Virus record (IMG/VR): IMGVR_UViG_3300018080_000160
Direction: 5' to 3' (one strand)
Source: an uncultured virus (IMG/VR IMGVR_UViG_3300018080_000160)
Taxonomy: Duplodnaviria > Heunggongvirae > Uroviricota > Caudoviricetes
DNA: 20,000 nucleotides
Every line of letters begins with the position of its first letter. The first letter of the stretch is position 1. A model generated the notes under the pieces. The model was not told where the DNA came from and ran no database searches. It was given only the letters and a program-made list of their open reading frames with translations. Below are positions 1,209 to 19,592 of this stretch, one piece after another. Position numbers and translations under genes: made by a program.

Positions 1209-1768
1209 TTTTGTTTCTCCTTTTTTTCTGATATTTCTGCTAAGTAACGCATCTTTTCGTCGATAAGCACTTCCAAATCTTTAAATTGGGAGAGCTTCTC
1301 GTCAACTTCTATTTTTACATCAATTAATACATTCAAAAGTCTATCAATGTCTATTAACTCTATCTTTTTAGTAATAACAGCAACATTTGCATCACAAGGC
1401 AGCCCAGATTCGATAGTTTTTACCATACTTTCGATTTTGTTAACTCCAGTCTGCGAACGAAACCACTCGTGCGGAATCTGCAAGATTAGGAGCTGCTTCT
1501 TTATTTGACTTCTCGCAAGAAAAATCTGGTCAAGAGTAAAATGATTTTTACAGTTATGACAAAGGTATTGGGGAGATAGAGGAACAGTAGGTTGTGCAAC
1601 ACTCTTCTGTGCTATCTTAATTGTGCTTGAACTCCCACATAAGGGACATTCAGGCGATTTTGGTGGTTGGAACTTGTGATTACAGTTCGGACACACGAAT
1701 ATCTGAGATACTGGGTCGAAATGGGCTAAGCCGCTACACATTGGACATAAATCTACTTTGTTCGAAAT
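1205..1768 (-). CDS. Double Zn-ribbon protein with a C-terminal coiled-coil; start probably ATT at 1768 rather than ATG at 1741
   Basis: CPNC, CPLC and CHNC are in the track ORF. Extending upstream in frame gives ISNKVDLCPMC, which completes a fourth CxxC. GGGGGT lies 7 nt before the ATT and an in-frame TGA at 1772-1774 bounds it. Confidence 0.7.
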   Translation of the reverse strand: MSNKVDLCPMCSGLAHFDPVSQIFVCPNCNHKFQPPKSPECPLCGSSSTIKIAQKSVAQPTVPLSPQYLCHNCKNHFTLDQIFLARSQIKKQLLILQIPHEWFRSQTGVNKIESMVKTIESGLPCDANVAVITKKIELIDIDRLLNVLIDVKIEVDEKLSQFKDLEVLIDEKMRYLAEISEKKEKQK

Positions 1769-2868
1769 ATGTCAAACCCCCCGCGTTTTTTGCTGCGTTT
1801 TTTCGATGTTCGTTTTTTAGGTTTTCTGCGCTTGGCGGTTTTCTTTTTCACGGTTGCTTTCTTGTCTTTTAGATTCCATTTCCGTCGCGTTGTAGTATCT
1901 GGGGTGACAATGTGAATCTTTTGAGGGATTATACTGAATGCAACTGTGGCCATTATCATTTTCTTTTTTGCAACATAAACGAACATCGAGATTTTATCGA
2001 CCACTTCGCGGTTATGTGCGTTAAGATTCTGTTCGGCGAGGTATATAACCAAAGTGGTTAGATTGATTTTCTGCTCTTTCAGAATTGCGTACACTCTCTG
2101 TCTGTCTGTGTTTATCAATACTTGCCCTACAATGTCTTTCACGCGCATCTGCTTGACTTCGTTCCTACTCGTGGCTCCATACTTCAAGATTTGGATTCCT
2201 TTGTAAAGTGGGTACATCTTAGCCGCTTTTTTGATAATCTTAACTGAAAGATTCGGGAAAAGATGTGTTAGAACAGCGGTACGAGTCGTCTCATTAGCCT
2301 CCTTAAACTCTATCACCTCTGCATTCAAGGAGATTTCTTTTTTACGGAGTTTGTAGGTTCTTTTCAACATCTTCGGAGCTATCCGCGTGATAATAATACA
2401 TGGAACGCGACAAGCATCCATCAACTCATTCAACTGCAGCATTGTTTGTTTATTGAACTTATCGAGCGAATCTACCACGACAATCTTTGGTTTGCCAATG
2501 AGGGTTGAATACCCAACTTCCTGAAAGAGTTCTTTAATTTTCTTTCGTGCCAAATCAACAAACACAAGTTCATGCGTGTTTTTGAATTTCTCGTTCACAA
2601 AATAAGATTTCCCAGTTCCTTGCGGCCCGGAAAGGATAACTAAACGGTTTTGGTACACCGCACGAATAATTCTCGCTCTCTGCTCGGAGTTACCTAAATA
2701 AAATATGCTTTCGTCCGCGTAAATCTGATCTTCTATTGAATCTCGCAAGAACGGGTAATACTTGTAGAGTATTGGGATTATATCTACGCTTTCTCCCGTT
2801 TTTTCGAGAGTTTCGAACAAGTCGAATTGGTTTGCTTTCAAGTGTTTGAAAAACATTTTTAATTTCAT
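1753..2868 (-). CDS. Divergent RFC large subunit-like AAA+ ATPase with a basic C-terminal tail
   Basis: VILSGPQGTGKS (Walker A), KPKIVVVDSLD (Walker B-like) and VPCIII. It is one gene away from RFC-S and ends in a K/R-rich tail followed by GGFDIF, the position of the archaeal RFC-L PIP box. Start set at ATG 2868, 7 nt after GGAGG. Confidence 0.7.
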   Translation of the reverse strand: MKLKMFFKHLKANQFDLFETLEKTGESVDIIPILYKYYPFLRDSIEDQIYADESIFYLGNSEQRARIIRAVYQNRLVILSGPQGTGKSYFVNEKFKNTHELVFVDLARKKIKELFQEVGYSTLIGKPKIVVVDSLDKFNKQTMLQLNELMDACRVPCIIITRIAPKMLKRTYKLRKKEISLNAEVIEFKEANETTRTAVLTHLFPNLSVKIIKKAAKMYPLYKGIQILKYGATSRNEVKQMRVKDIVGQVLINTDRQRVYAILKEQKINLTTLVIYLAEQNLNAHNREVVDKISMFVYVAKKKMIMATVAFSIIPQKIHIVTPDTTTRRKWNLKDKKATVKKKTAKRRKPKKRTSKKRSKKRGGFDIFRTK

Positions 2869-3350
2869 TACCAGTCCTCCCATAGTCGTTCTAACAATTT
2901 CTCTTTTGATTTTTGCTTTCTGGTGAATTCTGCTATCTGTTGTTGAACCACCGAGTCTAAATATGTCCTTACTGGGTCTGATATTGTATCGAATGCAAGC
3001 GTCCCCTCCACTTCATCTGTCGTGTAAAGCCCGACCCTACTCACAATCATCATATCATCAATTATAGTAGATTTACCGTCCTTTTCGAGGCGTAATGTTA
3101 ATGGGTCGCGGTTCATTATGTTTCTACACAACAGAACTTCTTGTAAATCGTCTACTTCTACTATAATTCTATATCGAGGTGATCCTTCTGTTTTGAAATA
3201 CTGTTTGCGTTCACCATTAGGTTCCATAATAACAACAGGAACATGCTGCGTCTCAGTCACCACTGTCATACTGCGTACAGAAACGGATATTTCCTCTCCT
3301 CTATCTTTAAAATCTACAAACAAATTACTTTCTGTGCCAGTGTTTGTCAA
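2868..3350 (-). CDS. Hypothetical protein (160 aa)
   Basis: Overlaps both neighbours in the leftward array and has a GGGAGG RBS; no recognisable motif. Confidence 0.65.
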   Translation of the reverse strand: MTNTGTESNLFVDFKDRGEEISVSVRSMTVVTETQHVPVVIMEPNGERKQYFKTEGSPRYRIIVEVDDLQEVLLCRNIMNRDPLTLRLEKDGKSTIIDDMMIVSRVGLYTTDEVEGTLAFDTISDPVRTYLDSVVQQQIAEFTRKQKSKEKLLERLWEDW

Positions 3351-3768
3351 AGGAATCCTCCCAAATTAGATTTAAATCAAAATTGTCATCACGACAAAGA
3401 CTATGGAAGAGCTGTTCGCTTTTACAAAAGATTTTGGTTGTATAGCAGCTATACGCTTTTTCTTGCAGTATGGTAGCAAAATTTAACACCACCACGTCGC
3501 TCGCGTACATTGCAGAGATAACCCACATATCCTCCTTCTTCCACGCATTTGCTATGCAGATTTTCGATTTATTGTGCTTGTTTTCATTGAACAAGTTTGC
3601 TGTGAATGCGTTGCGAATCCGAACTACAGCAAAGAAAGTGTAGAACGGTTTCCGTCCGTCCCAATCTTCGTATTCCTTTATACGTGCATTGAAAATCTTT
3701 AGATCGGAAATTGGGACGTGGGTAGTTTGCATCACGAAGGTGAGCCGGAATTGCTGCATGTTTATCAT
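3325..3768 (-). CDS. Hypothetical protein (147 aa), first gene of the leftward array
   Basis: ATG-started ORF filling the space between the divergence point and the next gene; no recognisable motif. Confidence 0.55.
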   Translation of the reverse strand: MINMQQFRLTFVMQTTHVPISDLKIFNARIKEYEDWDGRKPFYTFFAVVRIRNAFTANLFNENKHNKSKICIANAWKKEDMWVISAMYASDVVVLNFATILQEKAYSCYTTKIFCKSEQLFHSLCRDDNFDLNLIWEDSFDKHWHRK

Positions 3769-4103: not shown

Positions 4104-5588
4104 ATGCCGCCGAAAAAGAAAACAAGCAAAAAGCCCGCCAAGAAAAAGGCGAAGAAGACTGCTAAGCGTAAAGCAACGAAGAAACCTTCTAAATCTAAAT
4201 CAAACGGGAGTGATATGGTTATTGACATATCCTTCCTTGAGGAGGGTGACTGGGCAAAGGTTAATATGAGCCAGTCCGAGCTTGTTGCTGAACTGGAGCA
4301 GGTATGGGAGGCTGAGAGTATTTTGCGTCCGCAAGTTAAGAAAAACAACCCGAAGCTCTTTGAGCGAAAGGTTCTGTCCACTTTTGAGGGCAGAATGCGG
4401 CGGAAGCTCGCATCTACAGCACAAGCAGGTAACGAATCTTGTTACATCTTCGGGATGTCGATGCCATTCGACCCATACGCTGCGATGGCTGGCAAGTGTA
4501 TGAACGAGTACCAGAAAGATCCGACTGGTGCGATGAATAAGTTCGTGAAAACTCGCAAAAACAAACGCGGAAAACGAGAGGTTTACCCAATCTTCTACCC
4601 GACCTACGCAAAAGACACACGAGACCGAATCGGTAAGGAAATCAAAGGTACATCGTGGATGACTTCAATCGTCGGTGTTTGGGGGCCACAAGATGCGAAA
4701 AAGACTAAACCGTTCGTTACAATCGCTGGAGGCAGCTTCGGAGACGAGCATGTAAGTCTAAAGTGCCCCAACTGCGGAAACGAGTCAGTTTTCAAGATTT
4801 GCCCCGATTGTGGAACAAAAAAAGCGTTTGTCCTCCCGGAGATTATGAAAAGGATGTTCCATCCCTGTTCGTTTGACATGCGCGTAAAGGTAGATGACCA
4901 AGGCAACGAAACAATCGCATGGACGAAGCAAACCGTCCCGAAACTTAAAGATAACCCCACGGAAAAACAGATGGACATCTGGGGGTTGCTTGAAGGGAAC
5001 AAGGTTCTGCGCGGACACAGAATAACTACCAAGTCAGTGCTTAGCACCTACAAGAAATACAAGAACAACCGTAACTGGTGGGTGTGGATCTCGTGTGAGG
5101 TTGTCCGTGTTATCCCTAACGAGGACAAGAAAGGCAACAAAAAAATCATCGTGAGTGACGAACACTTCTCTTTGATGGATTCAAACGGTCGAGTCCGCGA
5201 GGGAATCACGGTGCGTCTCCCTCCTCACATTTGGGAACACCAGATGAGTGGTAAGATTGGTCAAGGTTCCTCGATTATTGTTGTTGGTAAAGTAGATGGG
5301 TTCAAGGGCAATGACGGTACGTTCATCACTTACCTCGAAGCGTGGGGTATTTGGGGAGTCCCCGGTCTCGTGAATGTGCCTCCGAAAGTCGAAAACGACC
5401 TCGAAGAAGAAGAGGGATTCGAAATCTCTGATGAGGAATCTTTAGAGAATATTGAACTCGGAGATGGAGAAACGGAAGATTTTGACGACGATGACGAGGA
5501 ATGGGATGAGAGTTTTAATGACGAGGAAGCATCCGACGAAGACGACGATGACGAATTAGATGTTAATCTTGAAGAGGAGTGGGAGTAA
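4104..5588 (+). CDS. Putative single-stranded DNA-binding protein (OB fold + Zn ribbon) with basic N-tail and acidic C-tail
   Basis: Zn ribbon CPNCG..CPDCG. OB-like strands WVWISCEVVRV / IIVSDE / ITVRLP / GQGSSIIVVGKV / LEAWGIW. The D/E-rich tail ends in EEEWE, as is typical of SSBs. GAGGT RBS. Confidence 0.65.
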   Translation: MPPKKKTSKKPAKKKAKKTAKRKATKKPSKSKSNGSDMVIDISFLEEGDWAKVNMSQSELVAELEQVWEAESILRPQVKKNNPKLFERKVLSTFEGRMRRKLASTAQAGNESCYIFGMSMPFDPYAAMAGKCMNEYQKDPTGAMNKFVKTRKNKRGKREVYPIFYPTYAKDTRDRIGKEIKGTSWMTSIVGVWGPQDAKKTKPFVTIAGGSFGDEHVSLKCPNCGNESVFKICPDCGTKKAFVLPEIMKRMFHPCSFDMRVKVDDQGNETIAWTKQTVPKLKDNPTEKQMDIWGLLEGNKVLRGHRITTKSVLSTYKKYKNNRNWWVWISCEVVRVIPNEDKKGNKKIIVSDEHFSLMDSNGRVREGITVRLPPHIWEHQMSGKIGQGSSIIVVGKVDGFKGNDGTFITYLEAWGIWGVPGLVNVPPKVENDLEEEEGFEISDEESLENIELGDGETEDFDDDDEEWDESFNDEEASDEDDDDELDVNLEEEWE

Positions 5589-5753
5589 TTGGGTAAGTAT
5601 AACAAAGGGAAACAAAAAGGAATCAATCTCCTCTTCAAGAAACGCTTCGACAGCATCATGAAAGACATCCGCCGACACGAGAAGGCGATAGACGAGATAA
5701 TTTCCAATATAAAAGATTTGTGGGAGGAGGTTGGCCATCGTGGAAATACTTAA
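5589..5753 (+). CDS. Small hypothetical helical protein (54 aa)
   Basis: Translated by hand from a TTG directly after the SSB stop: MGKYNKGKQKGINLLFKKRFDSIMKDIRRHEKAIDEIISNIKDLWEEVGHRGNT. It fills the gap and overlaps the next gene. Confidence 0.55.
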   Translation: MGKYNKGKQKGINLLFKKRFDSIMKDIRRHEKAIDEIISNIKDLWEEVGHRGNT

Positions 5754-6735
5754 TCTCGAAGACAAAGATGCAGATGAAATCCTCGATCTATTTCAAAAGA
5801 TGGAGGAATTTGGCGACATCAAACGATTTGTTATCGTTCTCTGGGGGCCTGAAAAGGTGGGTAAAACACATGTAGCTCTAACAGCATCGCGTTTAATCCC
5901 CAAAAACCCTACTATATCTTCAGAGCTCCGCGAGATGCTGAAGGATGGTCGCGTAATTCTCGGAGAGCCTGTCTGGCTTATCGACACGGAAGGTAAATCC
6001 CCAAAATTAAAAGATAAGTTCACTGGGAGAGATATTCGCATTCTTCCGGTGTGGGTTCCCGATGAAAACAACCCACTGAAGCCAGATGTGGAGAAATCTT
6101 TGAAGAATTTGATGTATGCTCTCATTGCTATGTCAAAACAGCCGAAAGGGACTCTCGTTATCGACTCGTGGACTGACCCTAACTCGTGGGCAAGAAAGCT
6201 CGTGCAAAAGAAACTGGTCGAAAACGAAGCAGAAGGCTGGGAACTCGGGGAACTCATCCCACTAAAGCCTACAGACTACGAGGGCCGCAATGACATCATG
6301 GACTTCATTCTCTATTACCTTCAAAATTACATCAAAAACATGCACGTAATCTTGACGGTGCGCGGAGAACCGAAGTGGGTCACGAACTCGGATGGAAAGC
6401 GGCCACATCCCGGCCCGCTTGCCAAGAAATGCAATAAAAAGACAATGTTCTTCGCAGATGTCGAAATCAAGCTCCTCAAGAATTTGTACGATGATGGAAC
6501 TGCTGAGCGCGTTGGAAGTTTGATTACAAGTGAGTTTGACGATGATGACCCTATTTCAAAAGATTGGGTAAACCCGAATATACCAAAAATCATCGACGAC
6601 CTCAAGGACTTCGCCATCAAGAAGCGGAAGATGACGGAGAAGAAGAAGCCCAAGAAGAAGAAGGCCAAGAAAAAGAAAACGACAAAGAGGAAATCCAAAA
6701 AGAAATCCAAACGACCAGTAAAACGAGGCGGTTAG
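5731..6735 (+). CDS. P-loop ATPase, AAA_24/Sak4-like (RecA superfamily), with a K-rich C-tail
   Basis: VLWGPEKVGKT (Walker A), WLIDTEG, TLVIDSWT (Walker B), HVILT and FFADVEIKL. It lies just downstream of the SSB-like gene. Confidence 0.75.
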   Translation: MAIVEILNLEDKDADEILDLFQKMEEFGDIKRFVIVLWGPEKVGKTHVALTASRLIPKNPTISSELREMLKDGRVILGEPVWLIDTEGKSPKLKDKFTGRDIRILPVWVPDENNPLKPDVEKSLKNLMYALIAMSKQPKGTLVIDSWTDPNSWARKLVQKKLVENEAEGWELGELIPLKPTDYEGRNDIMDFILYYLQNYIKNMHVILTVRGEPKWVTNSDGKRPHPGPLAKKCNKKTMFFADVEIKLLKNLYDDGTAERVGSLITSEFDDDDPISKDWVNPNIPKIIDDLKDFAIKKRKMTEKKKPKKKKAKKKKTTKRKSKKKSKRPVKRGG

Positions 6736-6736: not shown

Positions 6737-7741
6737 TTGGCAAAAAAGAAGAAAGCTGCAAAGAAGAAGGCGGCCAAGAAAAAGGCGGCCAAGAAAAAAT
6801 CTGCACGGAAGAAGAATGTGGTCGAGTTAGAAGGCCCGAAATCTAAAATTCTTAATCTTTTTTCCGTGCTGGGAATAAAAGGCAAGGAGTTGGACTCGAA
6901 TATGAGTTCAAAAGCTCTACTCACCGAAGGATTCGTTCTTGAAGTGGAAAACGACATCGCATCTTTTTATTCTGGGAACACGGTGAAGGGGATGAATGTC
7001 TTGCTTTATAAGATGGTGGAGCTTGACGGGATAACCGTTAAGTCCGAGGGGCTATGTTATTGTGCCGCAAACGACGAACTCCTTTCTCGCATATACAAGT
7101 GTGAGTCTGGAAAGATGCGAATCTCTATCGGAGATAAGAAAATCGAGATGGTCGATTCCGCGAACCACAAATCCGGATTCACGCAGACCTCAAAGGATGA
7201 AGGCGAAGATCGGGTGAAAGGATGGAAAGATATAATCGAGGACAACATCGGTCAACACACTCGCGGGTATAAATGGTCTGATGCAGATGTAATTGCTTCT
7301 ATGGTAGTTGATGCAGAGGAACTGGCTAAAATCGTCAAATCTGCTGAGATTATGCGTGTAGTGTCTTATCCCATCAAGATTCGGGACGGAAAGGTTATTT
7401 TCTCCGTGGAAAACGAATTCGCGTGGGAATCTCGTGAAATCGAACCTGACGATATTGAGATGGAAGAGGAGGAGTACGAGGCGAATTATCATACAGGGGT
7501 AGATGCTGCACTTAGCAATCTCGAAGAGGAAATCGTCATCAATATGTGTCGGCATCCGGAGGGTGTCGCGGATGTGATGGCCATCTCCAAAGTGGAGGAC
7601 AAATCTGTAACGGTGTTTTACCTTATCGCAATATCGGAAGACGATCTCGACGAACCCGAAGAAGATTTGGGTGAAGAGGAATTCGAGGAAGATTTGGGTG
7701 AAGAGGAACTCGAAGAAGCGGAGGAAGAGAACGATGGTTGA
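6737..7741 (+). CDS. Divergent PCNA-like sliding clamp with (KKKAA)n N-tail and acidic C-tail
   Basis: A core of about 270 aa has a two-domain alpha/beta pattern (ASMVVDAEELAKIVKSAE, IKIRDGKVIFSVE, EEYEANY, VTVFYLIAI; compare PCNA C-terminal YLAP). RFC and PolB are in the same module. TTG start after GAGGCG. Confidence 0.65.
   Translation: MAKKKKAAKKKAAKKKAAKKKSARKKNVVELEGPKSKILNLFSVLGIKGKELDSNMSSKALLTEGFVLEVENDIASFYSGNTVKGMNVLLYKMVELDGITVKSEGLCYCAANDELLSRIYKCESGKMRISIGDKKIEMVDSANHKSGFTQTSKDEGEDRVKGWKDIIEDNIGQHTRGYKWSDADVIASMVVDAEELAKIVKSAEIMRVVSYPIKIRDGKVIFSVENEFAWESREIEPDDIEMEEEEYEANYHTGVDAALSNLEEEIVINMCRHPEGVADVMAISKVEDKSVTVFYLIAISEDDLDEPEEDLGEEEFEEDLGEEELEEAEEENDG
6746..6805 (+). repeat. 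Four 15-bp in-frame tandem units encoding KKKAA x3 and KKKSA
   Basis: aagaagaaagctgca / aagaagaaggcggcc / aagaaaaaggcggcc / aagaaaaaatctgca. Confidence 0.9.
7661..7708 (+). repeat. 27-bp-period duplication in the acidic tail (EDLGEEE x2)
   Basis: gaagatttgggtgaagaggaa occurs at 7661-7681 and 7688-7708. Confidence 0.9.
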
Positions 7742-8000
7742 TGTTCCATACCCAGAAGGAGAAGTGAGATGGTACGGAGGGAGTCACAAAGTCAGAATTC
7801 TCCCGGCTGAATCTTTCAGTGAATGTAAACAACCTTATACTGGCTACACTTCGAAAAAGATTGAATCGCGGTGTTACCCGTGCTTGGTGATGGAAGATTT
7901 CATGACCACGCGCAGCGGGAAGGTATTCAAAGCTGGGGATAAAGTGGTTCTGGCAAAGTGTCTTCTGCCGAGGAAACATCGAAGTCAGTGGAAACGGTGA
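7734..8000 (+). CDS. Hypothetical protein (88 aa)
   Basis: ATG at 7734 overlaps the end of the clamp gene and follows GGAGG; MVDVPYPEGEVRWYGG... Confidence 0.55.
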   Translation: MVDVPYPEGEVRWYGGSHKVRILPAESFSECKQPYTGYTSKKIESRCYPCLVMEDFMTTRSGKVFKAGDKVVLAKCLLPRKHRSQWKR

Positions 8001-8344
8001 AGGAGATGGTAGAAACGGTCACTATCGAGAACGAGGCTAAACTTAGGCGTATATTACAGGAAATGAGCAAGACACAACACAAAATTCTTAGATTCATCGT
8101 GGAATTCGAGAAAAGTCACGGAATCGCCCCACAACAACGAGAAATCATTGAAGGAATCGAAAAAGCACCGACAACGATTAAGGACAATGTTATGATGTTG
8201 ACGCTTAGACAAATCGCTTACAAGAAAAAACTTAAAATCTATCGCCAGCTTGGTGGTAGACCTCCGATGACTGTCTCAGCAACGCCGCTTGGTGAATTTC
8301 TGTACCAATACGCCAAAAAAATGGGCTTTAAACCCTATACTTAA
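7958..8344 (+). CDS. Winged-helix DNA-binding protein (LexA N-terminal-like)
   Basis: SKTQHKILRFIVEFEKSHGIAPQQREI..TTI..L resembles the LexA DNA-binding domain, and GGRPP...TPLG resembles the wing. There is no peptidase domain. The true start may be further downstream. Confidence 0.7.
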   Translation: MSSAEETSKSVETVKEMVETVTIENEAKLRRILQEMSKTQHKILRFIVEFEKSHGIAPQQREIIEGIEKAPTTIKDNVMMLTLRQIAYKKKLKIYRQLGGRPPMTVSATPLGEFLYQYAKKMGFKPYT

Positions 8345-12004: not shown

Positions 12005-14720
12005 ATACAGACGCAGACTCTTGGAAATCACTAACTTCTCACCCCATTTTTATGTTGAAGGCGACCAGCGCGGCGTGAATAGCCCGTACATCAAGAAGGC
12101 GTACTATGATAGGTACGTAAATCGAAACTTGCAAGGCGAACGTGTCACAAAAATTGAAACTAATATCTCGTCAGATGTTCGACATCTTCGGGATAATGAA
12201 TTTGATGGCATGCAAACCTACCAAGCAGCTATTCTACTTCCCCGAACCTTTCTCATCGCTAACAGAATCACTTCTGGATTCCATATTGACGTGAACCGTG
12301 TCACAAAAGAGTCACATAGATACAACGGATCTCTGATATACAAGACAAGAACAGAACACCTGAAACCAAGCTCAAAAATCTATGTAGCTCCCCGAATTCA
12401 ATACGGCGACTTCGAGATTGACAACTCGGACGGTTCTCTGGCAGATGCTACAGTTGGAGACCTCCCAATCACCATGTACTCTTGGATAGATTCTTACGAT
12501 CCATTCAAACCGAAGTCTATCGTGTGGCATCCAAAGTGGGCTAACAAACAACCGACACTCGTAAAGAAGGAATACATCTACGAATACACGGGAGAAAAGC
12601 ACGAGTGGCACATACATTGTTTCCCAAACGAAATTGACATGCTCCATTACCTTATCAAAGTCATAGGTCTGAAAGAAGATCCGGACATTATGACTGGCTG
12701 GAACTTCACGGAGTTTGATATGACTTATCTAATCAACCGAATTCGTCATATTAACGCAACATCTCTCGAATCACATAAACCGGAAAATTTCATAGATATT
12801 CGAAGAATTTCTCCGTTATGTAGACTTGCTGACTATCGCGGATGGAGTTCCAGCAACGCGAAGGTTTCCGCTAAAAACGGTAGAGTGTATATACCGGGCC
12901 GAGAAATCCTCGATATGTATAAAGCTTACCGTAAAATGGTTGACCCAGCAGAAGGAAAGAAAGATTCCTATACTCTTGATAATATTGGATTTACCGAGTT
13001 GAAGTTAAGGAAGATTGTTCACGAAGGCAGTGTCGGTCAGTTGTGGATGCGAGACCCGCTCGCCGCGCTAATCTATAATATGCGAGACTCGGAGATATGT
13101 TATTTTCTTGACAATGTAAAAGGAATCTTTAATAACTTCGACACACAACGCAGAGAAGTAGGTTGCTTGTGGAGAGATGTCCTATCTCCGGCTATCGTCT
13201 TAGGTACTGACCAGACTCGGGCTGCCAACAAGAAAGGCATCGTATTACCTACTACTTACGTGCCAGACAAAAATAAGAAGAAAAAATTCAAAGGAGCCAT
13301 CGTTCTCCCAGCAACGGTCGGACTGCACTACAATGTTCTTGCATTTGACCTCAAATCTTTATATCTAAATCTAATCGACCAGTGGAATATATCCCCCGAT
13401 GTCTTCGTGGACACATTATCGAATTTGAAGAAGAAGCACAATAATAGCCAAAAAATCTTATCATCATACGTGCAAAACTATATTCGGACTCCTAACGGGT
13501 TGTTGTGGGAGAAAAGAAAAGATGGCTTTGCAAGAGAACGGGTTAGGCATTATCAAATAGAGCGACAGAAGATTCGGGATAAACACGCGCAGCTAAAAGA
13601 GATCAACGGGGCTGATAATATCGAAGTGAAAAACCTCGACACGCGCCAAAAAGCCTACAAAACATTCAGTTTGGTCTTCTGGGGAGTATTCGGACACGAA
13701 GGAAGCGAACTCTACTGGGAACCGATGGCTGAGGCTGTTACATCTTCGGGACGTACAGTAATAAATTTCACGAGAGATAGAGTCGAGAGTACCTTAATGC
13801 AGAAAAAACTCGAACTACAATTCGGAGAAGTCAAGGATCTTCGTGTAGTTTACGGTGACACTGATTCAGTCTATGTGCTTGTTCAATTTACTGACGAAAT
13901 GCTAAATCAAGACATGGATTTTATGTGTGATGTTGCAGATTACATCTCGAAATTCTTGAATGATGGTTACCCGTTACTCGCAAAGAAGTATAATTGTCCG
14001 ACAAATTGCATGCACATCCGTTGCGAGAAGATTTACAAGTCCTACTTCATGACCGTGACCGGGAAAGGAACTGCCGGGAAGAAGCGGTACGTGGGATTAA
14101 AAGTAAGGGAGTTACTTCAAGAGAGAGGGAAGGAGAGATGGATTGTCACGAATAAAGAGGACATCAAAGGCTTCGAGTCCAGACGCAGCGATAACTCTAA
14201 AGTTGGTAAGGACTTCCAGAAATCTATATTCAGTATTCTAATGCACGGAAAAGGGATTAAAGATATCAGAAGAAAACTCAAACATTTAATTAGAAAAACG
14301 CAAATGGAATTTTTCTCTGGGAACCACGCACTTACTGATATTGCAATACCGAAAGGTATATCCAGACCGCTTGGTTCATACGGTAAGTTAAATCCTCATA
14401 GTGGGCGAAGAAGTAGTATTCCTATTCATGTCCGAGCAGCTAAATATTCTAACCAGAACTTCAAGACGAACTACAATGGTGGGTCAAAGGTGTATTATAT
14501 CTACGTGGAAGATGTCCCTCGAATCTACCCAAAGACAGATGTGATTGCTTTCCAGTACGACCACGAAGTTCCGAAAGGTGTAGTGGTAGATTATAATAAG
14601 ATGTGGGAGAAACAATTTATAAAGAAAGCAGAGGCTATATTTCGCGGGCTGAATACTACCTACAAGCAGATCGTTGGAGGAGTGTTCAAAAATGCATTTG
14701 ATTCGTGGGATTCTAACTAA
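11904..14720 (+). CDS. polB: Family B DNA polymerase with 3'-5' exonuclease
   Basis: ExoI YGDFEID, ExoII GWNFTEFD, ExoIII YNMRD; motif A FDLKSLYLN, motif B QKAYKTFSLVFWG, motif C YGDTDS; KKRY and KGFESRRSD. Start set at ATG 11904 (GGAGG upstream; VDF..P..F.W.R..FSPHFYV matches the archaeal PolB N-terminus). Confidence 0.96.
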   Translation: MSSKILRGVHQSVDFLNYKNAPRMFVWYRDARDKYRRRLLEITNFSPHFYVEGDQRGVNSPYIKKAYYDRYVNRNLQGERVTKIETNISSDVRHLRDNEFDGMQTYQAAILLPRTFLIANRITSGFHIDVNRVTKESHRYNGSLIYKTRTEHLKPSSKIYVAPRIQYGDFEIDNSDGSLADATVGDLPITMYSWIDSYDPFKPKSIVWHPKWANKQPTLVKKEYIYEYTGEKHEWHIHCFPNEIDMLHYLIKVIGLKEDPDIMTGWNFTEFDMTYLINRIRHINATSLESHKPENFIDIRRISPLCRLADYRGWSSSNAKVSAKNGRVYIPGREILDMYKAYRKMVDPAEGKKDSYTLDNIGFTELKLRKIVHEGSVGQLWMRDPLAALIYNMRDSEICYFLDNVKGIFNNFDTQRREVGCLWRDVLSPAIVLGTDQTRAANKKGIVLPTTYVPDKNKKKKFKGAIVLPATVGLHYNVLAFDLKSLYLNLIDQWNISPDVFVDTLSNLKKKHNNSQKILSSYVQNYIRTPNGLLWEKRKDGFARERVRHYQIERQKIRDKHAQLKEINGADNIEVKNLDTRQKAYKTFSLVFWGVFGHEGSELYWEPMAEAVTSSGRTVINFTRDRVESTLMQKKLELQFGEVKDLRVVYGDTDSVYVLVQFTDEMLNQDMDFMCDVADYISKFLNDGYPLLAKKYNCPTNCMHIRCEKIYKSYFMTVTGKGTAGKKRYVGLKVRELLQERGKERWIVTNKEDIKGFESRRSDNSKVGKDFQKSIFSILMHGKGIKDIRRKLKHLIRKTQMEFFSGNHALTDIAIPKGISRPLGSYGKLNPHSGRRSSIPIHVRAAKYSNQNFKTNYNGGSKVYYIYVEDVPRIYPKTDVIAFQYDHEVPKGVVVDYNKMWEKQFIKKAEAIFRGLNTTYKQIVGGVFKNAFDSWDSN

Positions 14721-14732: not shown

Positions 14733-15023
14733 ATGTTAAAACTAAAAGATGAATATTTCGATATATTTCTCGATTTTGTTGTAGGATGTATTCCGGATAA
14801 GTATTATCCCGAAGGAGATGCGCAAAACATCCAAACCGGGGCACATACTTGTTTGGAAGTGAAAGAAGCAGTTAGATTAACGACTGTGGAGTTTGGTTTA
14901 CCGGAGAAAGCTTTTTTCTCGTATAAGATTGATTATATTGACGGAAACATAGTCGGCGAGGTTCAAATTAACGAATTCTTGCTAACTGAATCGCAAAAGG
15001 GGGAGTTTTGTGTTGAAGTTTAA
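14733..15023 (+). CDS. Hypothetical acidic protein (96 aa)
   Basis: AAGGAGTG RBS; fills the polB-helicase gap. Confidence 0.7.
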   Translation: MLKLKDEYFDIFLDFVVGCIPDKYYPEGDAQNIQTGAHTCLEVKEAVRLTTVEFGLPEKAFFSYKIDYIDGNIVGEVQINEFLLTESQKGEFCVEV

Positions 15024-16803
15024 TATACAGCTAACGAACGAGTTCGCTGTTACTATCGAGGAAATGTTCTCCTCGAACGGTAAGAGAAAAGTCTGGAAGT
15101 TTAATGTAAATCCGAAAAACGAGGGAGATGAATGCGGCTTCCCGTCAGTGGAGGCTCCAGATCAGTTCTGGCTCAAGAAACGATTTCGTGACGAGCTGCG
15201 CAATGACCTTATCAAGTATATAGAGGAGTTCCAACCCAAAGATCCAGACGACAAGAACGAGATTTTCAAGAATAGGGATAGAGTCGATAGAGTAGTTGCG
15301 AATCTAACACAGGAAATTGAATCTATTATTGACGATTATAACGATTCCCTCACGAAAAACAAGTGGAAGCAATTAAGATTTAATCCTGAACTGTATGTAT
15401 CTGTTGTGGGATTTCTCGCTGACCTAAACAATCGTAGCGTGGCAGATATTAAGAAGCATATCGAGATCGTGCGAGATAGAAAGAATAAGAAGATTGCAGC
15501 AAAGGGAGGTAACGGGGAAGTTACGAATGAGGAGGTTGCTTCAGAAGTCTTATTCATCAAACCCCCGAAAGATGTCTTCTCGTTCTTTTACAAACGATTA
15601 GATTTAATCATACAGACGCATCACAGTCTATATCAAGACACGACCTACGGTAAACCAATTCATAGATTTAAAGAAGAGTTAATCATCTGCTTGGCAACTG
15701 TATTATCGTTCTGGCTTGGAAGAGACCCGAAATGGGTGCTGTTCATCGGCCCGAGTCGTTCCTTCAAAAGTACCCATATTAACTTCTTCCAGACGCTTAA
15801 CAAAATTATAACTTTCGAAGTGGATATGATGACAGCAAATGCATTAATGTCTGGTGCGGAAGATGTCGAATCTTTTATGCACTTACTTGATGAGAAATGT
15901 CAGTTGATGGACGAGATGGGAACTTTTCTCTCGATGCGAAAAGATGTAGTCATCAAACTACTCTCCGAATACACCGTTGCGTATAAAGGATGGGCGAGTA
16001 AAGCAAGCGGTTCCACGAAAACGATGGAAACTGTTATTGCGAGATTTAACTGGCTTGCAGGCATAACAAACGAGAAATTCCAAGAACTATACGATCTCTT
16101 CCGGACGATAGGTTCTCGGTTCATTACATTCGAGTTTCCAGTTTATGCACAAGCAGAATGGAGTTATTACCATGATTTGGTTGATGGAAAGAATCCTTCT
16201 ATCGTTGGTGCGAAGGAGAAGGCACTGAAGAGAATGATTGGTTCCTATATGTATGGAATGTTCCGGTGGCTGAAGGAACACAAACCAATAGTGAAGCTCG
16301 ATAAGGTGAAAGATTTGCTGATTGAAGCTAGCAATTTTTATTCGATTTTCCGAGATCGAGAACCTCCGCTGTGGTTCCGTCAGATGCTTACTGACTTGGC
16401 AAGCACCATCGCTACAATGTTCAACCGCGATGAAGTGTTGGAAGAGGATGTCGAGATATTGATTTCGAGTACGTATTCCTGCAACAAAAAGGTTTACAAC
16501 GAGATCGTAAAAGTATTTGCTGCGAATAGGCGTATTCTGAGTATTGGGGACATAAAGGAAGTTCTTTCTACCTACAAGGAAAGCCATATCCGGAATATAA
16601 TAAATCTGCTTATCCAACGCGAGTTTTTGGAAGAGATGCCTTCCGGATTTATGACACGAGATAAGTGGAGAAATATCATGGAAATGATAAAAAAGCACAT
16701 GAAACGGACGGGGCAATACAATGCCTACACGACCAGCTCAAGTTCCCAAGCAAAGCAAGAATACTTACCAGCAGCAGCAGAAGAAGAGGGGGATTATTAT
16801 TGA
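15010..16803 (+). CDS. Divergent MCM-like AAA+ helicase with a C-terminal winged helix
   Basis: WVLFIGPSRSFKS (Walker A variant), TANALMSG, QLMDEMG (Walker B), FNWLAGIT (sensor 1), GSRF (Arg finger) and a C-terminal wHTH pattern. It lies between polB and the primase. Confidence 0.7.
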   Translation: MLKFNIQLTNEFAVTIEEMFSSNGKRKVWKFNVNPKNEGDECGFPSVEAPDQFWLKKRFRDELRNDLIKYIEEFQPKDPDDKNEIFKNRDRVDRVVANLTQEIESIIDDYNDSLTKNKWKQLRFNPELYVSVVGFLADLNNRSVADIKKHIEIVRDRKNKKIAAKGGNGEVTNEEVASEVLFIKPPKDVFSFFYKRLDLIIQTHHSLYQDTTYGKPIHRFKEELIICLATVLSFWLGRDPKWVLFIGPSRSFKSTHINFFQTLNKIITFEVDMMTANALMSGAEDVESFMHLLDEKCQLMDEMGTFLSMRKDVVIKLLSEYTVAYKGWASKASGSTKTMETVIARFNWLAGITNEKFQELYDLFRTIGSRFITFEFPVYAQAEWSYYHDLVDGKNPSIVGAKEKALKRMIGSYMYGMFRWLKEHKPIVKLDKVKDLLIEASNFYSIFRDREPPLWFRQMLTDLASTIATMFNRDEVLEEDVEILISSTYSCNKKVYNEIVKVFAANRRILSIGDIKEVLSTYKESHIRNIINLLIQREFLEEMPSGFMTRDKWRNIMEMIKKHMKRTGQYNAYTTSSSSQAKQEYLPAAAEEEGDYY

Positions 16804-17258
16804 TTGAGATAGCAATTTTTGTGTTTTTACTTCTTTTCTTCGTCGTCGAAGTGGTTATCGTTCTTAGATTATGGAAGATGACCCCTCAGACAACCGAACA
16901 AAACGAAGAGCAGACATTATCAGCAATAGAAAGAGCAGAAAATGCTCTTACGAAGCATTTCACGGAAGCATTAGAACACACGAATACACACTTGAAGCGT
17001 TCGTTTACTGCCATTATTTCATCGCGTCAAGGTAAACTGGGAGAGATGGAGGCTTTGTTTGCGCTAAAGGAGCGATATATTAGACTAATACCCCTCGGGC
17101 AACCAATAGATTTCATCGGTGTCGGAAATGATACAATCGACTTCATCGAGATAAAGACTGGGAGGGCGAGACTGACGAACGCGGAGAAAAAGATAAAAGA
17201 TTTAATCGAGAAAGGAAAAGTACGATTCCGGGAAATGAGGGAGGCTGATTACCAGTGA
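16800..17258 (+). CDS. Holliday-junction-resolvase-like PD-(D/E)XK endonuclease with an N-terminal transmembrane helix
   Basis: GKLGE, LGQPIDFI and FIEIKTG.ARLT..EK.IK..IE.GKV.F fit the Endonuc_Holl-type pattern. IAIFVFLLLFFVVEVVIVL is hydrophobic. TTG at 16800 overlaps the helicase stop. Confidence 0.8.
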   Translation: MIEIAIFVFLLLFFVVEVVIVLRLWKMTPQTTEQNEEQTLSAIERAENALTKHFTEALEHTNTHLKRSFTAIISSRQGKLGEMEALFALKERYIRLIPLGQPIDFIGVGNDTIDFIEIKTGRARLTNAEKKIKDLIEKGKVRFREMREADYQ

Positions 17259-17500: not shown

Positions 17501-18373
17501 ATGAAAGAACTGAAATTGGTAGCTGATGTATTAGGCTTCAATGTAAGCCCGTCATCTTTGAATACATTCGCCTATTGTCCGTACCAGTGGAAGATAGTTT
17601 ATCTAAATGGAGTTCGTGGGCCGGACAACTTATTTGCAGCCGCAGGATCTACCTTCCACAAGATTTTTGAAGTTGCATCTAAGAACTACGACAAGAACCT
17701 TTTCTTGAAGGAGAGAGCCACACATGTATACAATCTATGTATGGCTGTCCCTCCGGGTGAATGGAAACAACTAATGTCTCCTATTCTCAAAATGTATGCT
17801 ATAGCGGAGAACAAAAGATTCGAAAGAATTCTAAAATTCGTGGATGACGAAGACGAAGCGTGGGATTACTTCAACCCAATAGAAAACGAGAGGAAATACG
17901 TGTTAGATGATGAAGGGATAACCTTCATTGCGGATAGGCAGGTTATGGTTCCTGCTGGATATGCAGGAAATAGAGAGGAAGTTATGGGTGTTATCGACTT
18001 CAAACCAAAAGGAGACGAATACAGCACAACTCTAAATCGCCAACTAACTGCTATGGCTATTCACCTTAAAGATGATAGTGGAAACACACCGGTAGTTGGT
18101 GCTTACTTTTACCGAACAGGAGTAGAGCTTCCTATGAAGAAAGTTCATCACGCTTCTGTGCGAGGAATAAAAAATATCGCAGAGAAGATGTTGAATTGTC
18201 TAAAATGGGGTAGATTTAAGAAGAATCTTGGTTGGGGATGTGCTTGGTGTAGTTTCCAATTGGTATGTAGAGCGAAAATTCCACTCGAAACGTTCTTGGA
18301 GAATAAAAGGAACAGAAACGAAGTAGTAGGAGGTATATTCGATAATGTCAACCACAAAAATACATCTATTTGA
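17501..18373 (+). CDS. Cas4/AddB-like PD-(D/E)XK exonuclease with a 4-Cys cluster
   Basis: SPSSLNTFAYCP, GSTFH, E.E, IADR, IDFK, RQL and C-terminal CAWCSFQLVC. Confidence 0.85.
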   Translation: MKELKLVADVLGFNVSPSSLNTFAYCPYQWKIVYLNGVRGPDNLFAAAGSTFHKIFEVASKNYDKNLFLKERATHVYNLCMAVPPGEWKQLMSPILKMYAIAENKRFERILKFVDDEDEAWDYFNPIENERKYVLDDEGITFIADRQVMVPAGYAGNREEVMGVIDFKPKGDEYSTTLNRQLTAMAIHLKDDSGNTPVVGAYFYRTGVELPMKKVHHASVRGIKNIAEKMLNCLKWGRFKKNLGWGCAWCSFQLVCRAKIPLETFLENKRNRNEVVGGIFDNVNHKNTSI

Positions 18374-19427
18374 CACAATGGCCCGAGAGATTGGCCCAAA
18401 GCGTACTTGGGTTGAAGATAAAAATAAATTCTTCCACTGGTTAAACACAAACAGAACATACGAGGATTGTAGAGTTAGCGTTTACAGGTACGGGAATAGA
18501 CTGCAAGAGAAGAATTATGGGGATGCTGACCCTCGCAGCGTAGTCGTCGATAAAATTTTCATCGACACTGACTCGTTTTATGGTTACGAAGTAATGAAAC
18601 TCTTGAACGAGAAACTCTGCGATCTCGGTTTCGTTCATAGGATTAACTACTCCGGTCGTTACACACCTTACGGTACTATCCCACGCGCTATCGGCTTTCA
18701 CATCTATGTTTTTTGTTACCCAAATATCAACTACCCGAAGCAAGCCCTTTCAAATGCTCAAATCTTCATGGACAAGTGGGTTAGAAAGAAAGCAAAGGTA
18801 GAATTTGGTATAACGGAGGACGATGCTGTTGATTCCGCTATTATCGGTGATGTGATGCGGATGAGCCGATACCCGAACACATTCAACAAGAAGTGGAAGC
18901 GTTGGTGCGTCCCACTCACACAAGAAGACATCGACAACCTCAATCCTTACGATATCTATAAACTTGGTAGTCAACCCAGAAGAGAAGTAAACGGTAATGT
19001 CTGGTTAGGGGAAGGAAAGATTTGGCAGTTACCTCCTAAGTTCGATAAGGATGAATTCGATAAATTCAAACGCCGAAATGTCAATGTGACTAAATCTGAA
19101 TGTGATTGGGCTGAGATGATGGAAGTTTACGATGCGCCTCCGTGTTTGTGGAGTATGTTGAATGACCCGCATCTTGATTACCAAGAAAGATTCTGGTTAA
19201 TCGTGTGTCTGAGAGACCTCGGTTTCACACAAGAGGAGACGGAAACAATACTTGACGACTCACTTGATTACTACAAGTTCATGCATTGTGTAAATCAAGA
19301 ATTGATGACACACAGGTGTTATAATGGTGAACAGCAATCTGCGTACTTTACTGATGGTTGCGCGTTTATGAAGTCTCGGGGTTACTGTCCGGGTAATTGT
19401 GGACGAGATCATCCTATTTACAAGTGA
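18345..19427 (+). CDS. Archaeo-eukaryotic primase: PriS catalytic domain fused to a PriL C-terminal (Fe-S)-like domain
   Basis: AEP motifs FIDTD, SGR..GFHIY and GD..RM.RYPNT.N. The C-terminal part has PPC..L...ERF.L...L..LG and C..MKSRGYC.G.C..DHP. Confidence 0.85.
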   Translation: MSTTKIHLFDTMAREIGPKRTWVEDKNKFFHWLNTNRTYEDCRVSVYRYGNRLQEKNYGDADPRSVVVDKIFIDTDSFYGYEVMKLLNEKLCDLGFVHRINYSGRYTPYGTIPRAIGFHIYVFCYPNINYPKQALSNAQIFMDKWVRKKAKVEFGITEDDAVDSAIIGDVMRMSRYPNTFNKKWKRWCVPLTQEDIDNLNPYDIYKLGSQPRREVNGNVWLGEGKIWQLPPKFDKDEFDKFKRRNVNVTKSECDWAEMMEVYDAPPCLWSMLNDPHLDYQERFWLIVCLRDLGFTQEETETILDDSLDYYKFMHCVNQELMTHRCYNGEQQSAYFTDGCAFMKSRGYCPGNCGRDHPIYK

Positions 19428-19433
19428 TGAATT

Positions 19434-19592
19434 ATGTGTGAGTATCTGGAAAAATCTAAGGAATCCCCGGAAGTGATTAAATCTTGGGGAATTGTCGGGT
19501 ATTGTACCTACTTTAAGGCGAATGTCACTGGGCGAGTTTGCCCGTGTTCTAAGAAAAAGAAACGAAAAATAACAACATTTGATAGGATGTAA
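19434..19592 (+). CDS. Small 4-Cys protein with a basic tail (52 aa)
   Basis: Translated by hand: MCEYLEKSKESPEVIKSWGIVGYCTYFKANVTGRVCPCSKKKKRKITTFDRM. Confidence 0.55.
   Translation: MCEYLEKSKESPEVIKSWGIVGYCTYFKANVTGRVCPCSKKKKRKITTFDRM

Follow-up and report, generated by a model that had tools for sequence, protein, structure and literature searches.

Clamp client peptides in described systems

The sliding clamp of phage T4, gp45, is trimeric, and its clients are the polymerase, late-transcription factors and the ligase; we know of no methyltransferase client of the T4 or RB69 gp45. In eukaryotes, the DNA methyltransferase DNMT1 binds PCNA via a PIP box. The Tetrahymena 6mA methylase subunit AMT6 is described as being brought to newly replicated DNA by its PIP box, on the basis of IP-MS and PIP mutants (PMC11761967). 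Among the archaeal clients of PCNA with a C-terminal PIP box, one source names PolB, the RFC large subunit, NucS, NreA and others (PMC4929162). A distant sliding clamp homolog was reported in HVTV-1 by Kazlauskas, Krupovic and Venclovas in 2016; the term "PIP" has no occurrences in the main text of that article and tails shared by several clients are not described there (PMC4889955).

Clamp and clamp loader of the window

The window analyzed here covers 20 kb of a contig some 79 kb long and probably represents the replication module of a tailed virus of archaeal type, uncultured and related to the HVTV-1 group. The module encodes its own replisome, namely PolB, RFC-S, an RFC-L-like ATPase, a primase-like protein and a PCNA-fold clamp, and the replication genes surrounding the clamp gene are homologous between the window and HVTV-1.

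The clamp gene (6737–7741 bp, plus strand) encodes a protein of 334 aa with a core at approximately residues 27–300, a Lys/Ala-rich N-terminal tail and an acidic C-terminal tail. No Pfam family at E ≤ 0.01, no PHROG match and no PCNA_N or PCNA_C signature was found for this product, its homologs numbered only four among 1.84 billion representatives, and a search of PDB sequences with the resulting five-sequence profile found no clamp. Modeling with AF2 from the five-row alignment gave a pLDDT of 86.7 and a pTM of 0.86, and the model has the two repeated beta-alpha-beta-beta-beta domains of the DNA-clamp fold. Foldseek placed only PCNA or beta clamps at the top of its matches, P. furiosus PCNA with E = 2.9e-11. 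In the VIA comparison the model matched PCNA 6j0j_A with Z 19.4 (229 of 274 residues aligned, rmsd 3.4); the top 40 rows (Z 19.4 to 8.5) were clamp-family chains save for one de novo design at rank 40, after which Z fell to 4.6. The fold matches include three complexes with clients, namely PCNA with the RFC-L PIP peptide (1isq, P. furiosus), PCNA with PolB (3a2f) and gp45 with a ligase peptide (6drt, Z 16.0). Comparison with HVTV1_101 using hhalign gave a probability of 71% and E = 3.7e-5, with a YPIxIxDG block common to both proteins, and the HVTV-1 protein L7TKG1 matched the model at TM 0.71. HVTV1_101 was equated with the clamp of Kazlauskas et al. (PMC4889955) by the match of its 285-aa length to the fold hit and not from their gene list. 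The initial annotation had called the product a divergent clamp, and the model upholds this: it is identified structurally as a very divergent PCNA-type sliding clamp and a distant homolog of the HVTV-1 clamp.

Clamp loader genes are encoded in the same module. The RFC small subunit (246–1208 bp, minus strand) was recognized by PF00004, PF21960, PF08542 and phrog_168 (7.4e-45). Next but one to it on the same strand, beyond a Zn-ribbon gene (1205–1741 bp), lies the gene of a 376-aa AAA+ ATPase resembling the RFC large subunit (1753–2883 bp; PF00004, 8.8e-5; phrog_168 clamp loader, 9.5e-5). Pfam detected the AAA core alone in this protein, its profile gave no RFC match against the PDB, and the hhalign comparison with the neighboring RFC-S reached a probability of 88.5% over 77 columns only, from Walker A to Walker B. 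Its identity as the large subunit is therefore suggested by weak similarity, and the gene position and the C-terminal tail would fit that role. Between the window and the relative L002, the clamp (39.6%) and RFC-L (36.2%) show the lowest identity of the shared replication proteins, the others being at 48%–62%; across lineages, clamp identity is 33–40%.

C-terminal peptides of the replication proteins

Family B DNA polymerase (11,904–14,720 bp, plus strand; 938 aa) was identified by PF00136 (7.8e-42), PF03104 (3.7e-20) and phrog_262 (3.4e-103). The start was placed at ATG 11,904, in agreement with the 938-aa database copy P0002; the longest ORF runs from GTG 11,847, and the Pfam envelope ends at residue 932 of 957, with the tail beyond it. 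The predicted docking peptide KNAFDSW (14,688–14,708 bp) lies 4 residues from the end, where L002/P0003 has QVGILEWG and P0004 has AVATAWG. A PIP-like [ILMVF]xx[FWY] box occurs in the last 14 residues of 104 of the 119 PolB homologs, so that the tail is positionally homologous to established PIP boxes, as the initial annotation had supposed. A strict Q-box was present in only 24 of the 119, and the lack of Gln, named in the initial annotation, cannot count as a special feature; the PIP box of AMT6 is likewise described as lacking Gln (PMC11761967).

The product of the gene at 8604–9461 bp (plus strand, 285 aa) is classified from its sequence as a D12-class (Dam-like) N6-adenine DNA methyltransferase: PF02086 was matched at 9.3e-16 (58.7 bits, cut-off 22), phrog_56 at 1.1e-42, and D177-P178-P179-Y180 (DPPY) is invariant in the alignment. 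It is homologous to HVTV1_89 (E = 2.6e-11). Its predicted docking peptide, KVSFDKW (9432–9452 bp), lies on an extension of about 18 residues that follows the last conserved methyltransferase motif, and the Pfam envelope ends at residue 247 of 285. An h-x-x-[WF] ending is kept in all six members of the clade of this enzyme, and from one genome to the next it changes together with the PolB tail; within the final 8 residues, [FILMV]xxW was found in only 5 of the 120 Dam homologs listed and in 3 of the 114 outside the clade. As judged from these alignments, the tail is a conserved, clade-specific add-on, which bears out its inclusion among the proposed carriers.

The predicted docking peptide of the RFC-L-like protein, RGGFDIF (1765–1785 bp, minus strand), follows a basic low-complexity linker of 20–40 residues and variable length. 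F370 is invariant in three homologs; the counterpart in L002 is GGFSQFG, and the L004 protein ends with KSFAW. By analogy with the P. furiosus RFC-L PIP peptide (1isq), this tail is situated where homologs carry PIP-type boxes, in line with the original proposal. The GGG GGG codons of the tail are 35 nt upstream of the ATG of the next gene at 1741, a distance that removes the earlier reservation that they double as its ribosome-binding site.

The tails of the three proteins (K-N-A-F-D-S-W-D, K-V-S-F-D-K-W-S and R-G-G-F-D-I-F-R) lie in terminal, flexible segments outside folded domains. They depart from the strict PIP consensus Q-x-x-[LIMV]-x-x-[FYW]-[FYW]: Gln is absent, position 4 is taken by Phe, and only one aromatic is present.

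Several smaller candidates were considered. A putative gene for a 52-aa Cys-rich protein (19,434–19,592 bp, plus strand) has a basic linker, KKKKRK, after which the product closes with ITTFDRM (KITTFDRM, 19,566–19,589 bp); it had no Pfam or PHROG match, and no relative covers the corresponding position, the L002 sequence ending inside the primase-like gene. This product probably carries the motif and is a candidate for a small protein that binds the clamp. An ORF of 160 aa (2868–3350 bp, minus strand), directly upstream of the gene of the RFC-L-like protein, ends with RLWEDW, and an unrelated ORF at this position in L004 ends with RKFEW; it is probably an additional carrier, not listed in the initial annotation. 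The two weaker matches given there find no support in conservation. The GGIFDNV string of the Cas4-like nuclease (18,329–18,349 bp, plus strand), a weak candidate, is 11 residues from the end and is unconserved in L002, where the homolog has an unrelated tail, and the HVTV-1 RecB ends differently; DSFDKHW of a 147-aa ORF is spaced differently, and that ORF lacks homologs.

All five peptides quoted with coordinates, including QKPLVTFDGM of the C5-methyltransferase, were reproduced exactly by translation at their positions and strands. In the 26 complete window proteins (6422 aa), to which the enrichment counts refer, F-D-x-[FWYMLIV] occurs 14 times vs. 6.4 in within-protein shuffles. Starting in the last 8 residues, it was found 4 times vs. 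0.14 expected (0 of 1000 shuffles), and the narrower F-D-x-[FWM] 4 times vs. 0.037 expected. Since this pattern was chosen after looking at the sequences, all 400 dipeptides were tested. FD ranked first for the last 8 residues (5 proteins vs. 0.48 expected, p = 1.4e-4), and any dipeptide as extreme appeared in 1.4% of 3000 shuffles, which corresponds to a family-wise p of 0.014; the supposed C-terminal enrichment thus holds in the window. The looser [FILMVW]xx[WF], counted over the same C-terminal 8 residues, was marginal in the window (5 vs. 2.1, p = 0.05) and not significantly enriched in L002 (3 vs. 1.8, p = 0.25).

Near N-termini, too, F-D shows a mild excess (3 within 12 residues of the start vs. 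0.68, p = 0.03).

Tails across related genomes

Within one genome, the tails of unrelated proteins are alike, whereas those of different genomes are not. The end-peptides are AFDSW, SFDKW and GFDIF in the window; GILEW, GIQNW and GFSQF in L002, where a 166-aa ORF also ends with GIQSW; VATAW, TATNW and KSFAW in the L004/47-kb lineage, for which the pooling of assemblies was checked; and GVLSW, DVLDF and SVLDF in HVTV-1. In a permutation test defined post hoc, with the tails already seen, 20 of 48 within-genome identities were counted vs. a mean of 7.5, and the true pairing alone (1 of 576) reached 20. An HVTV-1 pattern, likewise defined post hoc, gave a similar picture: 5 of 163 CDS end with L[DES][FW] (expected 0.14; 0 of 5000 shuffles), namely those of RFC-L, the N6-adenine methyltransferase, PolB and two hypothetical proteins, none of them in the structural module. 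HCTV-5 keeps four of the same tails, and its PolB, RFC-L and adenine methyltransferase share one end-peptide as in HVTV-1; both are independent, cultured viruses. In HCTV-2, the adenine methyltransferase and the product of the next gene end with the canonical-looking Qxx[L]xx[YF] (2 of 42 CDS), and no PolB or clamp is annotated within the 28 kb covered.

The L004 lineage has Ala at position 4, a weak residue for a PIP-type plug.

Our literature search found no published description of such shared client tails. Their agreement within each genome fits a lineage-specific docking code, as far as it can be read from sequences. The initial annotation had proposed a "private" clamp-binding code; the privacy of the code agrees with the lineage-by-lineage covariation of the tails, and the clamp binding and replication-coupled methylation that were attached to it keep the status of predictions.

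Proposed docking on the viral clamp and alternative explanations

The tails of PolB, the RFC-L-like protein and the adenine methyltransferase are predicted to dock on the viral clamp and thereby to allow co-replicative methylation; we assign this reading a probability of about 0.6. The docking element would consist of a hydrophobic residue followed at the third position by an aromatic, here F-D-x-W/F; the tail that bears it is flexible and in many cases basic, and the element would sit in a hydrophobic front-face pocket of the viral clamp, like PIP boxes on PCNA. Once loaded at the fork, the clamp could carry polymerase and methylase by turns, and methylation would reach newly made viral DNA just behind the fork. 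Tail sequences vary from lineage to lineage but match within a genome, which points to co-evolution with each fast-diverging clamp.

The same tails could be genuine docking peptides for the host PCNA instead of the virus-encoded clamp, given that their position matches that of archaeal PIP boxes and that the Qxx[L]xx[YF] tails of HCTV-2 show host-type boxes to exist on viral methylases. We regard this as unlikely: the virus encodes its own clamp and loader, the loader-like subunit bears the same tail, and divergence between close relatives combined with agreement within a genome is easier to reconcile with a fast-evolving viral partner than with a conserved host PCNA.

Slightly less likely is a different viral hub, or another role such as replication-compartment recruitment, oligomerisation or turnover. 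Candidate hubs are a 494-aa Zn-ribbon protein with an acidic tail, an AAA_24-like ATPase and a 597-aa protein, and the link between motif and clamp is a predicted one. Conserved charged tails ending in an aromatic occur elsewhere in the module (LEE[EA]W in the 494-aa protein, Y in the 597-aa protein), so that tails probably mediate contacts of more than one kind. Against another hub for the F-D tails stand the positional homology of the PolB tail to archaeal PIP boxes and the identity of the carriers, PolB and RFC-L being exactly the two proteins that are known for C-terminal PIP boxes on archaeal PCNA in the source cited above (PMC4929162).

The initial annotation had both methyltransferases tethered to the clamp, the C5-methyltransferase through its internal QKPLVTFDGM (10,294–10,323 bp, plus strand; residues 178–187 of 345). 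This string does fit QxxLxxF, and internal-loop PIP boxes are known, as described for AMT6 (PMC11761967). It is situated, however, inside the Pfam DNA_methylase envelope (1–340), directly after the conserved PxPTH that ends the M.HaeIII-aligned block and where the variable target-recognition region begins; the true C-terminus of the enzyme has no F-D tail. A C5-methyltransferase was not found in the gene content of L002. Tethering of this enzyme is improbable, and the string is probably no docking motif.

Finally, chance, composition or a nucleotide signal at gene ends (ribosome-binding site, promoter) is a largely refuted and very improbable source of the recurrence: the motif has merely 2–4 fixed residues, Phe is encoded by TTT in 5 of 6 terminal F-D pairs of this AT-rich genome, and the loose pattern is non-significant in L002, but FD leads all dipeptides, tails are kept at function-matched positions across relatives despite different letters and codons, the distances from motif to stop and to next start vary among carriers, the GGGGGG run is 35 nt from the next ATG, the gene downstream of PolB has its own AGGAG after the PolB stop, and the same tails phenomenon is seen in GC-rich HVTV-1.

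Returning to docking on the viral clamp, a wider proposal can be made only tentatively, namely that archaeal tailed viruses with their own divergent clamp use a genome-specific C-terminal docking code that co-evolves with it, forming a host-insulated toolbelt. If true, this code would connect the polymerase, the loader, the Dam-like methylase and accessory proteins of small size (in HVTV-1 and HCTV-5 one of them resembles N-acyltransferases) to the clamp and keep them apart from the clients of host PCNA. Methylation of viral DNA, and perhaps other modification, would accompany replication and precede the action of host restriction; where a virus has no clamp of its own, as with HCTV-2, these enzymes would carry host-type Q-boxes.

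Comparison with known systems

Like the archaeal PIP clients, the tailed proteins of the window bear, on a flexible segment, a C-terminal peptide in which a hydrophobic residue and an aromatic stand three positions apart, and PolB and the RFC-L-like protein are among the carriers. Unlike archaeal boxes, the tails of the window have no Gln, have Phe (Ile or Ala in relatives) at position 4 and a lone aromatic where archaeal boxes have two; their presumed partner would be a viral clamp without the PCNA sequence signature, and the clients include a DNA methyltransferase. DNMT1 and AMT6 belong to other methylase families, serve maintenance in cells and have PIP boxes that are internal or N-terminal, whereas the enzyme of the window is viral and Dam-like (D12), has a C-terminal tail and presumably serves in the protection or marking of viral DNA. 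The gp45 of T4 and RB69 is likewise a virus-encoded clamp that recruits unrelated viral proteins by a short, usually C-terminal hydrophobic peptide, although gp45 is of another clamp lineage and its viruses have a bacterial host. With the HVTV-1 clamp, the clamp of the window has in common the YPIxIxDG block, the fold and the surrounding replication genes.

Gene content of the replication module

The ORF listing, translation and family scans revealed a compact replication module in the window. The minus strand contains genes for the RFC small subunit (246–1208), a Zn-ribbon protein (1205–1741) and an RFC-L-like AAA+ ATPase (1753–2883, a soft label), together with two small ORFs. The plus strand encodes, in order, a 494-aa Zn-ribbon protein with an acidic tail (4104–5588), an AAA_24-like ATPase (5731–6735), a 334-aa protein called a clamp in the initial annotation (6737–7741), a wHTH protein, a D12 adenine methyltransferase (MTase; 8604–9461), a C5 MTase (9760–10797), a dUTPase, PolB (11904–14720), a 597-aa protein (15010–16803), a Hjc-like nuclease (16665–17258), a Cas4-like nuclease (17501–18373), a primase-like protein (18345–19427) and a 52-aa ORF. 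The contig carrying the window's own proteins is about 79 kb long. Among annotated phage records, the best matches of PolB belonged to haloarchaeal tailed viruses (about 25% identity).

Several proteins of the module have features of their own. A zinc ribbon (CPxCG...CxxCG) lies in the middle of the 494-aa protein, which has a long acidic C-tail and gave no match in Pfam or PDB sequences; profiles of this protein and of the RFC-L-like protein gave nothing informative against the PDB. Its tail tip, L-E-E-[EA]-W-[EH], is kept in the homologs of the related contigs L002 and L004, with spacing unlike that of the F-D-x-W tails, and the protein may act as a hub of the SSB type that makes a contact of its own through the tail tip. 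The 597-aa protein, which has no family match and shows the highest conservation in the module (62% to L002), contains a P-loop-like string GPSRSFKST and an acidic tail with a terminal Tyr. The AAA_24-like ATPase has a long basic tail, and BLAST matched it weakly to HVTV1_103 of Haloarcula vallismortis tailed virus 1 (HVTV-1; E 5.9e-6); the only helicase candidate of HVTV-1 in the accessible text of PMC4889955 is a divergent SF4 helicase. The Hjc-like ORF shares about 140 nt with the 3' end of the 597-aa gene, its residues 1–70 look as though they were read through out of frame and include a hydrophobic stretch that seems spurious, and the gene probably starts at the ATG near 16870.

A divergent sliding clamp

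The product of 6737–7741 had no match in Pfam or PHROG, and a word-based homolog search retrieved only the protein itself. Exhaustive scanning of 1.84 billion representatives with HMMER yielded four homologs, and no clamp was found when the family profile was compared with the PDB. Modeling with AF2 from the single sequence was unusable (pLDDT 36.8) and required the five-row clamp-family alignment A1, with which a model of pLDDT 86.7 and pTM 0.86 was obtained, showing a beta-alpha-beta pattern repeated twice. The top Foldseek matches of this model were all PCNA or beta clamps, the best being P. furiosus PCNA (E 2.9e-11). A structure search independent of Foldseek gave PCNA at Z 19.4 (229 aligned, rmsd 3.4); its top 40 rows were clamp-family chains except for one de novo design (rank 40, Z 8.5), after which Z falls to 4.6.

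In a viral structure library, the third match was an uncharacterised 285-aa protein of HVTV-1 (TM 0.71). HVTV1_101 (285 aa) aligned with the clamp profile over 94 columns (E 3.7e-5) with a common YPIxIxDG block. A distant clamp homolog in HVTV-1 was described by Kazlauskas, Krupovic and Venclovas in 2016 (PMC4889955, accessible text); judging from the matching length and the comparison made here, HVTV1_101 is probably that homolog. The structure matches and the HVTV1_101 alignment therefore bear out the divergent clamp of the initial annotation, and its type is one already noticed in one cultured virus.

Among the replication proteins shared by the window and L002, the clamp (39.6%) and the RFC-L-like protein (36.2%) are the least conserved, the others reaching 48% to 62%. 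A Lys/Ala-rich N-tail of the clamp (6737–6814) is present in the window only, while an acidic C-tail (7637–7741 in the window) is common to all five family members. In two related contigs (L002:9965–11032 and L003:1055–2092) this tail contains E-I-F-D-[LV]-G-N-E. Such a tail may serve as a pseudo-ligand for self-docking, or it may be the counterpart of the basic linkers located ahead of the client tails.

Enrichment of the motif at C-termini

The initial annotation took recurrent F-D-x-hydrophobic peptides to suggest a private clamp-binding code and clamp tethering of methyltransferases. All five quoted peptides, namely KNAFDSW (PolB), KVSFDKW (adenine MTase), RGGFDIF (RFC-L-like), KITTFDRM (52-aa ORF) and QKPLVTFDGM (C5 MTase), were present exactly where it had placed them. 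The 26 complete proteins of the window contain 14 occurrences of F-D-x-[FWYMLIV] vs 6.4 in shuffles. The enrichment at C-termini, a check proposed with that claim, was also found, since four occurrences start in the last 8 residues vs 0.14 expected (0 of 1000 shuffles). To correct for the choice of the pattern by eye, all 400 dipeptides were ranked by how strongly the last 8 residues are enriched in them; the top one was FD (5 vs 0.48 expected, p 1.4e-4), and a dipeptide as extreme as FD appeared in 1.4% of 3000 shuffles. The relaxed pattern [FILMVW]xx[WF] was marginal in the window (5 vs 2.1) and not significant in L002 (3 vs 1.8); therefore, counting alone cannot carry the relaxed version, and this generic pattern is too loose for count-based testing.

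The motif could also be the by-product of a nucleotide signal such as a ribosome-binding site (RBS), and the F-D codons do vary little (TTT/TTC, GAT/GAC). Such an origin was rejected, as the motif lies at varying distances from the stop codon and from the start of the next gene, and the downstream genes have their own signals. For the RFC-L-like tail, where the motif codons had been suspected of doubling as the RBS of the next gene, the caveat fails because GGG GGG lies 35 nt from the next ATG.

F-D-x-hydrophobic strings were also observed near N-termini, with three in the first 12 residues vs 0.68 expected (p 0.03). They are located at position 9 of a 96-aa ORF and of the primase-like protein, at position 8 of the Zn-ribbon protein and, further in, at position 20 of the RFC-L-like protein (2824–2826 region), where the Phe is invariant in relatives; 14757–14768 and 18369–18380 are the other window coordinates of such strings.

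Conservation of the tails and agreement within genomes

In the PolB homologs, [ILMVF]xx[FWY] was found in the last 14 residues in 104 of 119 sequences and a strict Q-box in 24 of 119, and K-N-A-F-D-S-W-D of the window occupies the position of this box. The tails of the closest PolB relatives, Q-V-G-I-L-E-W-G and K-A-V-A-T-A-W-G, fix the register, with a hydrophobic residue at position 4 and Trp at position 7. Three RFC-L-like homologs are built alike, with a common folded core, a basic linker that varies and, at the end, the peptide G-G-F-[DS]-x-F or K-S-F-A-W with one invariant Phe. In all six adenine MTases of the viral clade, a short extension past the last MTase motif closes with h-x-x-[WF] (SFDKW, GIQNW, GLQNW, ATNW, GLSGF and DMKLF); [FILMV]xxW was found in the last 8 residues of 5 of 120 Dam homologs.

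The syntenic relatives L002 (20.8 kb), L003 and L004 all come from one metagenome. The L002 PolB and MTase match the database proteins P0003 and P0127 at 916/917 and 286/287 residues, respectively; in L004, the clamp matches P0122 and the start of the MTase matches P0128 without any difference. Searches of viral contigs with the clamp or PolB alone and a search of genome contigs gave no relatives. Two other contigs were discarded: L001, the only match of alignment A1 in viral contigs, was weak and is unrelated, and L005, the only match of the AAA_24 alignment there, is not a relative.

Tails of unrelated proteins were alike inside each genome and different between genomes. In the window, they are AFDSW (PolB), SFDKW (MTase), GFDIF (RFC-L), LWEDW (the small ORF o160) and TFDRM (the 52-aa ORF); in L002, GILEW, GIQNW, GFSQF and, in a 166-aa ORF, GIQSW; in the L004 lineage, VATAW, TATNW, KSFAW and, in a 146-aa ORF, KFEW. 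In a test devised post hoc, the four residues before the aromatic residue were scored for PolB, MTase and RFC-L of four genomes (the window, L002, the L004 lineage and HVTV-1). Within-genome identities amounted to 20/48 vs a mean of 7.5 over 576 relabellings, and 20 was reached by the true labelling only. A real C-terminal motif, conserved and genome-coherent, is carried by the Dam-like MTase, the RFC-L-like protein and PolB, which are encoded together with a clamp-fold protein.

Small ORFs adjoining the clamp-loader genes carry the local tail version, namely RLWEDW in the window (2868–3350, minus strand), RKFEW in L004 (2076–2516, minus strand) and GIQSWRKNV in L002 (5574–6074, minus strand). 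BLAST between these ORFs of the different lineages revealed no homology.

The initial interpretation is partly supported: it holds for the clamp itself and for PolB, the adenine MTase and the RFC-L-like protein as carriers of putative docking tails, whereas neither the C5 MTase nor the weak matches gained support. The C5-MTase peptide is internal, directly after the conserved PxPTH segment, just past which the M.HaeIII alignment breaks off into a variable region, and no C5 MTase is present in L002. The tail of the Cas4-like nuclease is not conserved, and that of the 147-aa ORF differs in spacing and has no homolog. The putative 52-aa ORF has the best-looking architecture, with a basic linker and then the motif at the very end. 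A complex prediction for the clamp core and the C-terminal 40 residues of the adenine MTase, run without controls, scored 0.00 in both runs and weighs neither way on binding.

Cultured haloarchaeal viruses

BLAST homologs of the RFC small subunit, MTase, PolB, primase-like, AAA_24-like and Cas4-like proteins of the window were found in HVTV-1. Five of its 163 annotated CDS have a C-terminal L-[DES]-[FW] (0.14 expected; 0 of 5000 shuffles), namely those of the RFC large subunit, N6-adenine MTase, DNA polymerase, gp90 and gp69, and no such tail was found among the CDS of the structural module. In HCTV-5, whose MTase is 64% identical, the same four proteins retain the ending, with different preceding residues.

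A 165-aa protein encoded between the MTase/RFC-L genes and PolB ends in P-L-D-F, like the replication enzymes (HVTV-1, 45026–45523, minus strand; HCTV-5, 3064–3561, plus strand). An N-acyltransferase domain is annotated in the HCTV-5 protein (gp87). Clamp tethering may extend to this second kind of enzyme. In HCTV-2 (KC292028), which belongs to a different family, PolB and a clamp are absent from the annotation of the 28 kb examined. Its adenine MTase (7439–8254) and the next gene product (8247–8603) end in the canonical-looking Q-A-S-L-G-G-Y and Q-Q-S-L-R-E-F (Q-x-x-L-x-x-[YF]; 2 of 42 CDS in these 28 kb).

Proposed mechanism and comparison with known systems

The C-terminal motif would dock on the co-encoded viral clamp in the manner of PIP boxes on PCNA, and because of this docking the methylase would act on nascent DNA behind the fork. 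Host PCNA is an alternative candidate for the partner. To our knowledge, clamp tethering of DNA MTases is established in eukaryotes only, namely for DNMT1 and, recently, for a 6mA complex of a ciliate. Replication-coupled methylation would exist in the archaeal virosphere if a Dam-like enzyme of a virus is carried by the clamp that the virus encodes, and this would be a simple account of how nascent viral genomes are protected from restriction. The lineage-specific tail letters offer a natural system for the co-evolution of a hub and short linear motifs, and also bear on the question of whether the replisome of a virus is kept orthogonal to that of its host. Since HVTV-1 and HCTV-5 are cultured and have the same pattern, the idea is directly testable at the bench.

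In the open-access main texts searched, no clamp- or PCNA-tethered DNA MTase of archaea, phages or archaeal viruses was found. The term 'PIP' does not occur in the main text of PMC4889955, nor 'PIP motif' in the accessible text of a survey of archaeal Caudoviricetes (PMC8651126), and methylases are absent from the client list in the accessible part of a review of archaeal PCNA clients (PMC4929162). The Tetrahymena 6mA methylase complex is described, in the accessible text of PMC11761967, as tethered to PCNA by a Gln-less PIP box. The nearest item to a tethered archaeal MTase is a remark in the accessible part of PMC4929162, according to which a putative adenine MTase of P. abyssi co-purified with NucS, PCNA and RFC.
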